From NCBI GenBank assembly GCA_017461005.1, contig JAFTZU010000029.1, forward strand, positions 750 to 64,749: a DNA stretch of 64,000 bases. Direction: 5' to 3'. Shown piece after piece: positions 32,201-33,294 of the stretch (its first letter is position 1; each line of letters opens with the position of its first letter). Made by a program: the position numbers and the translations under genes. The DNA is from Clostridia bacterium. GTDB lineage: Bacteria; Bacillota; Clostridia; Oscillospirales; Acutalibacteraceae. The notes under the pieces were generated by a model, which saw only the letters and a program-made list of their open reading frames with translations, ran no database searches and was not told the origin of the DNA.

Positions 32201-33294
32201 ACATCAGCGAAAAGAACCGCGACAAGCTCTTCAAGCTCATGGAAGACGGGAAGATCAGCTTCCTCGTCTACACCGGCGCGATGATGGATGATACGGTGGA
32301 GGACTACATCGCCCTCAGCCGGAAGGCCCTGCTCCAGAACATCCCGTGCTTCACGTCCCTCGACACGGCTATGGCGACGGCGGACATCATCGCTTCCCGC
32401 TTCAGCCAGCAGAACACGGAACTCGTTGACATCAACCATATGCGCCGCACGAAGCAGGTCCTGGAATTCTCCAAGATGCAGGCCACCGGCGACGACTACA
32501 TCTTCATCGAAAACTTCAACGGGGAGATCGAATGCCCCGAGTCCCTCGCGCTGCAGATGTGCGACCGCCACTACGGCATCGGCGCCGACGGCATGGTCCT
32601 CATCGAAAAGTCCGACGTGGCAGACGCGAAGATGCGCATCTTCAACCGGGACGGCAGTGAAGGGAAGATGGCCGGCAACAGCATCCGGTCCGTCGCGAAG
32701 TACCTCTACGACAACGGCTATGCCTTCACCGAGGACATGACGGTCGAGACCGCCTCCGGCGTCAAGGCGATGCACCTCTTCACCCGGGACGGCCGCGTCA
32801 ACTATGTCGAAGTCGATATGGGACCGGCGGACCTCCGTGCCGCTTCGCTCCCGACGACCTTCGAGGACGATATCATCCTGAACAAGGCGGTCCTGATCGG
32901 GGGACGGGAATACAACATCACCTGCTGTTCCATCGGCAACCCCCACTGCGTCGTCTTCTGCGACCGGGTCGATCCCATCGACCTGTCCGTCGTGGGCCCG
33001 AAGTTCGAGTACGCCGAGTTCTTCCCGGACCGCATCAACACGGAGTTCGTCCGTGTGGTCAACGACACGACCCTGAAGATCCGCGTCTATGAGCGGGGCA
33101 ACGGGGAAACGATGGCCTGCGGCACCGGCGCCTGCGCGGCCGTCATCGCGGCCTGCGAGAACGGATACTGCCGCAGGGGAGACGACATCACCGTCAAACT
33201 GCCCGGCGGAGACCTTATCGTCAACTACACCGAGGAGCGGGTCACGCTCTCCGGTAACACGGCGCTGGTCTTCAAAGGCATGTACCAGTACTGA
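29239..33294 (+). CDS. carB: Carbamoyl-phosphate synthase large subunit fused in frame to a C-terminal DapF-like (diaminopimelate epimerase fold) module
   Basis: 1351-aa uninterrupted ORF. Residues 1 to about 1060 are a complete CarB ([21 protein letters not shown]..., second ATP-grasp half, MGS-like tail). Residues about 1068-1351 (nt 32440-33291) align with DapF (FSKM.., GADG, [35 protein letters not shown], PGGDL). Confidence 0.9.
   Translation: [1351 protein letters not shown]

Follow-up and report, generated by a model that had tools for sequence, protein, structure and literature searches.

In an Oscillospirales genome the large subunit (CarB) of the arginine-operon carbamoyl-phosphate synthase (CPSase) carries at its C-terminus, fused in frame, a homolog of diaminopimelate (DAP) epimerase, DapF, in which the first of the two catalytic cysteines is replaced by alanine. 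The fused gene lies in a 64,000-nucleotide stretch of contig JAFTZU010000029.1, referred to here as the window, from a 2.1-Mb metagenome-assembled genome (MAG) of 95% completeness designated G000; the other G numbers are genomes compared with it. Residue numbers such as C73, C217, N11, G76 and C79 are those of E. coli DapF. The module is, by sequence, unambiguously a DapF homolog, and it is probably a binding or regulatory domain and not a working epimerase. In its specific form, to which we give roughly even credence, this reading holds that the module performs no normal two-base LL/meso-DAP epimerisation and is a folded DAP-binding domain acting in cis on the arginine CPSase. The features concerned are:

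29239–33294, plus strand: carB fused in frame to a dapF-like module, one open reading frame of 1351 codons (ORF list and translation)
29239–32400, plus strand: CarB proper, residues 1–1054, with two ATP-grasp halves, an oligomerisation domain and an MGS-like allosteric domain (NF003671, TIGR01369)
32401–32460, plus strand: junction or linker, about residues 1055–1074, separating the CarB model from the DapF model, which starts at residue 1076
32446–33291, plus strand: DapF-like module, residues 1070–1351 (282 residues), full two-domain fold (TIGR00652, 2otn, AlphaFold model)
32491–32493, plus strand: Asp1085 (gac) at the Asn11 position (MAFFT alignment with E. coli DapF)
32671–32673, plus strand: Ala1145 (gcc) at the first catalytic Cys, C73 (sequence, phmmer, MAFFT)
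32680–32691, plus strand: Ser1148 (agc, 32680–32682; G76 position) and Ser1151 (tcc, 32689–32691; C79 position) (MAFFT)
33118–33120, plus strand: Cys1294 (tgc), the second catalytic Cys, C217, kept in ETMACGTGA (sequence, phmmer, MAFFT)

The DapF-like module

TIGR00652 matches residues 1076–1349 (model positions 2–268 of 270) with 266 bits against a cut-off of 114.65, and PF01678 matches the module twice. Its closest homologs of solved structure, found with phmmer, are the DapFs of Bacillus anthracis (2otn; the best, 7e-70), a cyanobacterium (9mro) and Arabidopsis (3ejx), at 39–41% identity. The alignments to all three pair Ala1145 with the first catalytic Cys, that of ..GSEGKsCGNGlRC.., and Cys1294 with the second. 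C73 is the acid/base for the L-centre in DapF. Alignment with E. coli DapF using MAFFT gives the changes C73A, G76S, C79S and N11D, with C217 retained. A sequence-only reading of the window had pointed to the alanine codon, to the surviving second cysteine, to GNS in place of GNG, to Ser at the second Cys of the motif and to an N-terminal GDDY, and each of these was confirmed by the alignments. That reading had also described neighbouring conserved residues as lost. The G76S and C79S changes are there, but the description was overstated: residue 76 already varies between G and A among relatives that bear the Cys, and the substrate contacts are all intact apart from C73 and N11.

The residues that grip both ends of DAP have been defined in the DapF of Haemophilus influenzae, in which Asn11 hydrogen-bonds the reactive alpha-amino group (PMC8225329). 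N64, N157, N190, R209, E208, G74, N75, G218 and T219 are all present in the module, the exception being the change of N11 to Asp. The AlphaFold (AF2) model of the module has a pLDDT of 94.3 and a pTM of 0.91, and superimposes with TM 0.91 and an rmsd of 1.7 Å on the aziDAP-bound DapF 9mro_A and with TM 0.91 on 3ejx (Foldseek). Its best superpositions are on ligand-bound, closed DapF structures; DapF moves from open to closed in clamshell fashion. Ser1148 and Ser1151 lie on the first turn of the helix that is normally capped by Cys73, and which starts in the model at module residue 77. The alignments place no Cys at the first catalytic position, and the DapF fold is retained. Since this one defining feature is absent, the module is not filed as a diaminopimelate epimerase. 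An assembly or sequencing artefact, or chance, is ruled out as the source of the change, the Cys-to-Ala replacement needing two base changes and the state being common to close and distant relatives.

Conservation and selection

A search limited to fusion-length proteins returned 5766 clusters, the closest 120 of which (62–98% identical) were read. Cys73 was absent and C217 kept in 120/120. Among species-representative genomes 596 loci encode a relative, and in the best 80 of these 596 Cys73 was likewise absent without exception (80/80). The genomes that carry it are gut and rumen MAGs assigned to Oscillospiraceae, Ruminococcaceae and 'Eubacteriales', and one carrier is cultured, Evtepia gabavorous KLE1738, which has an Ala73 fusion together with a standalone DapF.

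The residue survey covered 225 distinct fused modules of Oscillospirales without Cys73, with identities reaching down to about 50%, and 37 Cys-bearing modules for comparison. Position 73 is A in 209 of the 225, G in 11, S in 3, and F and Y in one each, so that the Cys-to-Ala change is common to orthologous fusions, as the sequence-only reading had proposed to check. N64, G74, N75, R78, N157, N190, E208, R209, G218 and T219 are invariant (225/225). H159 and C217 are each kept in 223/225, two Cys73-less modules having lost C217 too. Residue 76 is S, C or N in 193/225 (86%) of the Cys-less modules and G or A in 36/37 of the Cys-bearing ones, and residue 11 is Asp in 141/225 (63%) and Asn in 37/37, respectively. 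The dimer-interface aromatic residue (Y268 in E. coli) is Y or F in 219/225. Only six columns discriminate Cys-less from Cys-bearing modules, with no obvious catalytic gain among them. Cys76 was considered as a 'hopped' catalytic residue and rejected, being present in just 45/225, with S, N or A in the others.

Pairwise dN/dS for the module is 0.04–0.16 at dS 0.3–1.0, indistinguishable from the adjoining CarB half (0.04–0.13), and the fusion reading frame is open in 76/76 related loci that could be checked. By these measures the DAP-pocket residues and the closed-form fold are shown to be under purifying selection as strong as that on CarB. The module combines the loss of an essential catalytic residue (C73A) with purifying selection (dN/dS 0.04–0.16), as is expected of a pseudoenzyme.

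Origin of the fusion

The maximum-likelihood (ML) tree groups all fused modules in a single clade (SH-aLRT 95), which is nested among standalone DapFs of the Firmicute type. The basal fused members keep both cysteines, and the Ala73 group, which includes the window protein, is a supported subclade (99). An unfused carA-carB-dapF-dapL cluster with a two-Cys DapF occurs in G006 (L087, G006:C10:9000-19000), from the sister group within the window's genus, and in G021 the fused gene is followed by dapL; carA-carB-dapF-dapL looks like the arrangement that preceded the fusion. The genes dapF and dapL are neighbours in most of the order. Tree and gene order together show that the module descends from a real dapF directly downstream of carB in such a cluster, that the fusion happened once, and that it began as a bifunctional CarB-DapF with both cysteines, Cys73 then being lost in a large clade.

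Ala73 is not the only replacement. Other fused lineages have Gly (G030, G036), Tyr (G120, L200), Phe (G112, L201; G224; G211) or Ser (G196, L203; G114) at position 73, and the fused protein of G029 (L028) has C217S with Cys73 kept. No loss of a catalytic Cys was seen among about 22 standalone DapFs. A catalytic Cys has been lost independently at least seven or eight times, and in fused copies only. A truly standalone Cys-less DapF was not found among the 120 best module-length hits, which lack Cys73 wherever the motif is readable: those inspected either have the junction Met as their first residue or include CarB tail sequence, many of the others carry the CarB MGS domain, are flagged partial or sit on short contigs, and the context of a few 284-aa calls on longer contigs was not seen. 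Nor was a reversion from Ala to Cys seen in the window's genus.

Other routes to meso-DAP

Searches for DapF, for Ddh, which makes meso-DAP without an epimerase, and for the module were combined over 40 relatives and a sample of 251 genomes from the order, each with a completeness of 90% or more, with the motif read in the fetched sequences; the sample matches listed may miss a few genomes, and related genomes are not independent of one another. Among the matches listed, 17 fusions that are the only DapF of their genome were sequenced, and 13 of them keep Cys73. Five of the Cys73-keeping ones are without a listed Ddh match (G235, G126, G075, G095 and G197), and the same holds for G025, one of the relatives. 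Where the fusion is Cys-less, a standalone DapF accompanies it in most sampled genomes (>40), and both cysteines are present in every standalone DapF that was sequenced. The 12 genomes among the matches listed that have a Cys-less fusion and no second DapF all have Ddh. Two cases depart from this pattern: G055, where the gene is truncated by the end of its contig and where a standalone DapF is present in the congeners, and G000 together with its own congeners. The GDDY and position-73 motifs of the window protein also occur in genomes with DapF or Ddh (G067, G083, G034 and G062).

Seven of the about eight loss events fall in lineages with an alternative route to meso-DAP. This complementarity is the best argument to hand against a supply of epimerase activity by the Cys-less module. 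Published mutagenesis agrees with it: DapF-type enzymes with a Cys-to-Ser change are left with <0.1% activity (PMC8225329), and the C73A/C217A double mutant of E. coli DapF is inactive (PMC6061791). A second gene, for DapF or Ddh, takes care of the ancestral reaction in the other sampled genomes; in G000 such a gene was not found.

The lysine pathway in the genus of the window

G000 has asd-dapA-dapB, DapL (491 bits) and a DAP-decarboxylase homolog. The last lies outside the window, within an argC-x-argJ-argB-argD cluster (G000:C156:31738-33009; L067:3956-5230, minus strand), and scores 277 bits with TIGR01048, just under the cut-off of 298, while possessing motifs common to solved DAP decarboxylases. 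The same type (59–74% identity) is present in 78/251 genomes and standard TIGR01048-type LysA in 155/251, the two distributions being roughly complementary, and in many genomes of the order with a canonical DapF it is the sole LysA-type gene. It looks, on its distribution, like an alternative LysA clade that escapes the curated models. Because it is the sole LysA type beside canonical DapF and is complementary to LysA, the G000 decarboxylase was read as functional and as needing meso-DAP; a non-lysine or LL-DAP-specific enzyme was rejected as the simplest reading on the same ground, its standing as the sole LysA type in canonical-DapF genomes.

Other racemases were considered as the missing epimerase. 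The Alr2-type DapF2 is an alternative epimerase (PMC13759103), and was rejected here, G000 and G009 each having one alanine racemase and a YggS-like protein. An extra racemase of the Asp/Glu family was rejected too, there being one member per genome, presumably MurI. A 273-aa CntK/HisR-like racemase with both catalytic cysteines is encoded at G000:C53:697-1518 (L002; best PDB matches 6l4l/6jis, CntK, and 9cr1, HisR), and was discarded as a general replacement since it is confined to the nearest kin of G000 and does not extend across the DapF-less clade. Its gene adjoins that of a 2-hydroxyacyl-CoA dehydratase subunit. In G009, a genome of this genus with 100% completeness, DapA, DapL and the decarboxylase are present, and no DapF domain was found in the sequence searched. 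An E. coli delta-dapF strain grows normally (PMC13759103), presumably through a promiscuous racemase. Since G009 lacks a DapF domain and the E. coli delta-dapF strain grows, another or a promiscuous racemase is the more economical answer to the gap.

DNPR is the meso-DAP motif of MurE. It is found in the other sampled genera, and across the window's genus the corresponding residues are DDPG, DDPN or DDPC (G000:C47:49921-51339; L068:2932-4443). This suggests that the peptidoglycan of the genus may be without meso-DAP, the diamino acid having been switched, in which case the DAP pathway would serve lysine only. DapF-less members of the genus have dapL in a new position, behind teichoic-acid genes for ribitol-5-phosphate cytidylyltransferase and a TarL/TarF-like polymerase (G000:C192:393-3557; L086).

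The operon of the fused gene

The remaining features of the locus are:

27085–28083, plus strand: argF, ornithine carbamoyltransferase, first gene of the operon (TIGR00658, 409.7 bits; cut-off 280.85)
28086–29252, plus strand: carA, CPSase small (glutaminase) subunit, overlapping the start of carB (TIGR01368, 439.9 bits; cut-off 307)
33311–33339, plus strand: candidate terminator hairpin, GGCAGTGCA-GAAA-TGCACTGCC + T7, just 3' of the stop codon (read by eye)

The Pfam domains of the 1351-aa product are CPSase_L domains, MGS and DAP_epimerase. NF003671 matches end-to-end over residues 1–1054 with 1438 bits (cut-off 599) and TIGR01369 with 1413 bits, and this full-length match above cut-off, with carA adjoining and argF upstream, identifies the protein as a CarB. 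The argF-carA-carB operon appears to end at the terminator-like candidate hairpin and T7 run behind the fused gene. Since G000 has a second, ordinary CarB on another contig (G000:C184:657-3881; L082, minus strand), unfused, 1074 aa long and 44% identical to the fused copy, the latter was taken to be the CPSase of the arginine operon; we infer that the unfused one serves pyrimidines. The CarB of G009 is of the unfused type only. An open frame of 1985 codons runs antisense to carB (window 29191–35148, minus strand); it is almost certainly no gene, its openness being a consequence of high G+C codon usage.

Weighing of the readings

The reading that we favour starts from the single fusion of dapF to carB, the bifunctional two-Cys CarB-DapF that it gave and the later loss of Cys73. 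With a separate DapF or Ddh supplying meso-DAP, the epimerase chemistry of the module would have become dispensable, and the fused domain would have been left with a second task, not a catalytic one. Most likely, DAP binding and clamshell closure would report the state of the lysine/cell-wall branch to the CPSase; DapF-type dimer contacts may be an alternative or an added role.

Several points weigh against this. C217 and its partners H159 and E208 are as tightly conserved as in real enzymes, which a pure binder would not obviously need. The two-domain AF2 model (pTM 0.69) shows no confident packing of the module on the allosteric domain of CarB, and the linker is its lowest stretch (pLDDT 60–67). 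The physiological logic of a control by DAP over the arginine CPSase is conjecture. Lastly, the module is the only DapF homolog in G000 and about 12 congeners, in which Ddh, a second DapF, an Alr2-type DapF2 and a spare Asp/Glu racemase were searched for and not found, and some epimerase activity from the module may still be needed in this genus. The sequence-only interpretation, that a one-thiol DapF could not run the two-base reaction and that a binding or regulatory module was likely, therefore stands in part: two-base epimerisation is improbable, and the binding or regulatory reading fits better with selection, the invariant pocket, the repeated loss and the redundancy elsewhere, but a full loss of epimerase activity is not assertable here, the module being the only DapF homolog of G000.

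That the module is still the DAP epimerase of the cell, at least in the window's genus, as a slow or altered one-thiol enzyme, we consider unlikely. In such a scheme Cys1294 would serve one face of the substrate, and the other would be served by water occupying the space that the Cys-to-Ala change opens, aided by Ser1148 and/or Asp1085. The gap just described speaks for it: G000 and about 12 congeners have DapL, asd-dapA-dapB and the decarboxylase, which most likely needs meso-DAP, yet neither Ddh nor a second DapF, no second gene of the alanine-racemase family and a single Asp/Glu racemase. The DAP pocket, C217, H159 and E208 are also kept, as are a polar residue 76 in 86% and Asp11 in 63% of Cys-less modules. 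Outside the genus, however, nearly every sampled genome with a Cys-less fusion has another route to meso-DAP (G055 excepted), and the same motif and GDDY are found beside DapF or Ddh (G067, G083, G034, G062). Residue 76 varies (S, C, N, A) and residue 73 may be F or Y; the Cys-to-Ser mutants retain <0.1% activity (PMC8225329); G009 manages with DapA, DapL and the decarboxylase and no DapF domain found; E. coli delta-dapF shows normal growth (PMC13759103); and no Ala-to-Cys reversion was seen in the genus. The fuller claim, that DAP epimerisation in the window's genus falls to the one-thiol module, working with one Cys and water, Ser or Asp, maybe slow or direction-biased, and co-regulated with the arginine CPSase, appears to us decidedly unlikely.

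The repeated loss of the catalytic Cys would also be expected of a pure scaffold, in which CarB would need the DapF fold in order to fold or to dimerise in the DapF manner and no ligand would be bound. The fusion is ancient and a re-splitting was never seen, the Y268 position is Y or F in 219/225, and E. coli DapF is an obligate dimer (PMC6061791). A scaffold gives no reason, though, for ten invariant buried polar pocket residues and 99% retention of C217 (n=225), which would be expected to drift first, and AF2 gives no confident contact with CarB; we judge this explanation very unlikely. Most improbable in our estimation is a new one-base chemistry through Cys1294 alone, for instance an elimination or a proton exchange acting on a DAP-like compound that has a link to arginine or carbamoyl-phosphate metabolism. 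It would parallel the Cys/Thr trans-3-hydroxyproline dehydratases derived from two-Cys proline-racemase-like enzymes; the fold search lists the one-base relatives PhzF and 3-hydroxyproline dehydratase as distant structural neighbours, and ureido compounds are within reach of DapF folds, as seen in the O-ureidoserine racemase DcsC (7vdy). The retention of C217, H159 and E208 is in keeping with it. Against it, the pocket is unchanged, including the ligands of the distal carboxylate and amine, so that DAP itself is the expected ligand, and DAP lacks a leaving group; the six discriminating columns hold no new conserved polar residue; and two Cys-less modules have also lost C217. The 'different one-base chemistry' offered by the sequence-only reading has accordingly found little in its favour, residue 73 tolerating A, G, S, F and Y in what is still a DAP pocket.

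Comparison with known systems

Canonical DapF (EC 5.1.1.7; TIGR00652, PF01678; PDB 2otn, 9mro, 3ejx, 1bwz/2gke) is like the module in fold, pocket residues, second Cys and the H159/E208 pair. The module differs in having Ala for the first Cys, Asp11, a side chain at G76 and a fusion to the C-terminus of CarB and, unlike canonical DapF, coexists with a real DapF or with Ddh in most genomes. The Cys-intact CarB-DapF fusions of Oscillospirales (G021, G023, G025, G235, G126) share its architecture and single fusion origin, as carA-carB::dapF often followed by dapL. They keep MCGN(G/A)IRC, can be the only DapF of their genome, in some cases without Ddh, and are presumably true bifunctional enzymes; the window protein, by contrast, belongs to the derived Ala73 clade.

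For the proposed action on CPSase there is an analogy in E. coli, where DapF is an allosteric partner and activator of the RNA pyrophosphohydrolase RppH by protein contact, independent of its own dimer state (PMC6061791). There a separate and active protein acts on an unrelated enzyme, whereas the module is fused and Cys-deficient and its contact would be with CPSase. One-Cys members of the racemase superfamily (trans-3-hydroxy-L-proline dehydratase, Cys/Thr; PhzF, Glu) have the same pseudo-symmetric fold class with one acid/base residue replaced, but possess remodelled pockets and new substrates, whereas the module has an unchanged DapF pocket and a residue 73 that is not fixed. The MGS-like domain of CarB is likewise a C-terminal, enzyme-derived fold that binds effectors without catalysis; it has another fold and other ligands (UMP, IMP, ornithine), and the DapF-like module is appended after it.

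Full-text literature searches found no paper on the CarB-DapF fusion. In public records the full-length proteins are called 'carbamoyl-phosphate synthase large subunit' only, and fragments 'diaminopimelate epimerase, partial' (P0124, P0132, P0154, P0220 and others). The architecture is shared by thousands of database proteins, which come from hundreds of gut and rumen Oscillospirales species. Automated pathway tools would miss the DapF part or wrongly credit the Cys-less domain with epimerase activity, and would thereby distort what is predicted about lysine and peptidoglycan auxotrophy among abundant gut anaerobes. The cultured carrier E. gabavorous KLE1738 makes the question of function directly testable. 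If the module still epimerises, it would represent a new catalytic solution in a drug-target enzyme class and overturn the two-thiol requirement. If it senses DAP, CPSase would have a new allosteric input joining the lysine/cell-wall and arginine branches, and the module would be a clean natural case of the passage from enzyme to regulatory domain in which the stages, separate genes, bifunctional fusion and Cys-less fusion, all survive.

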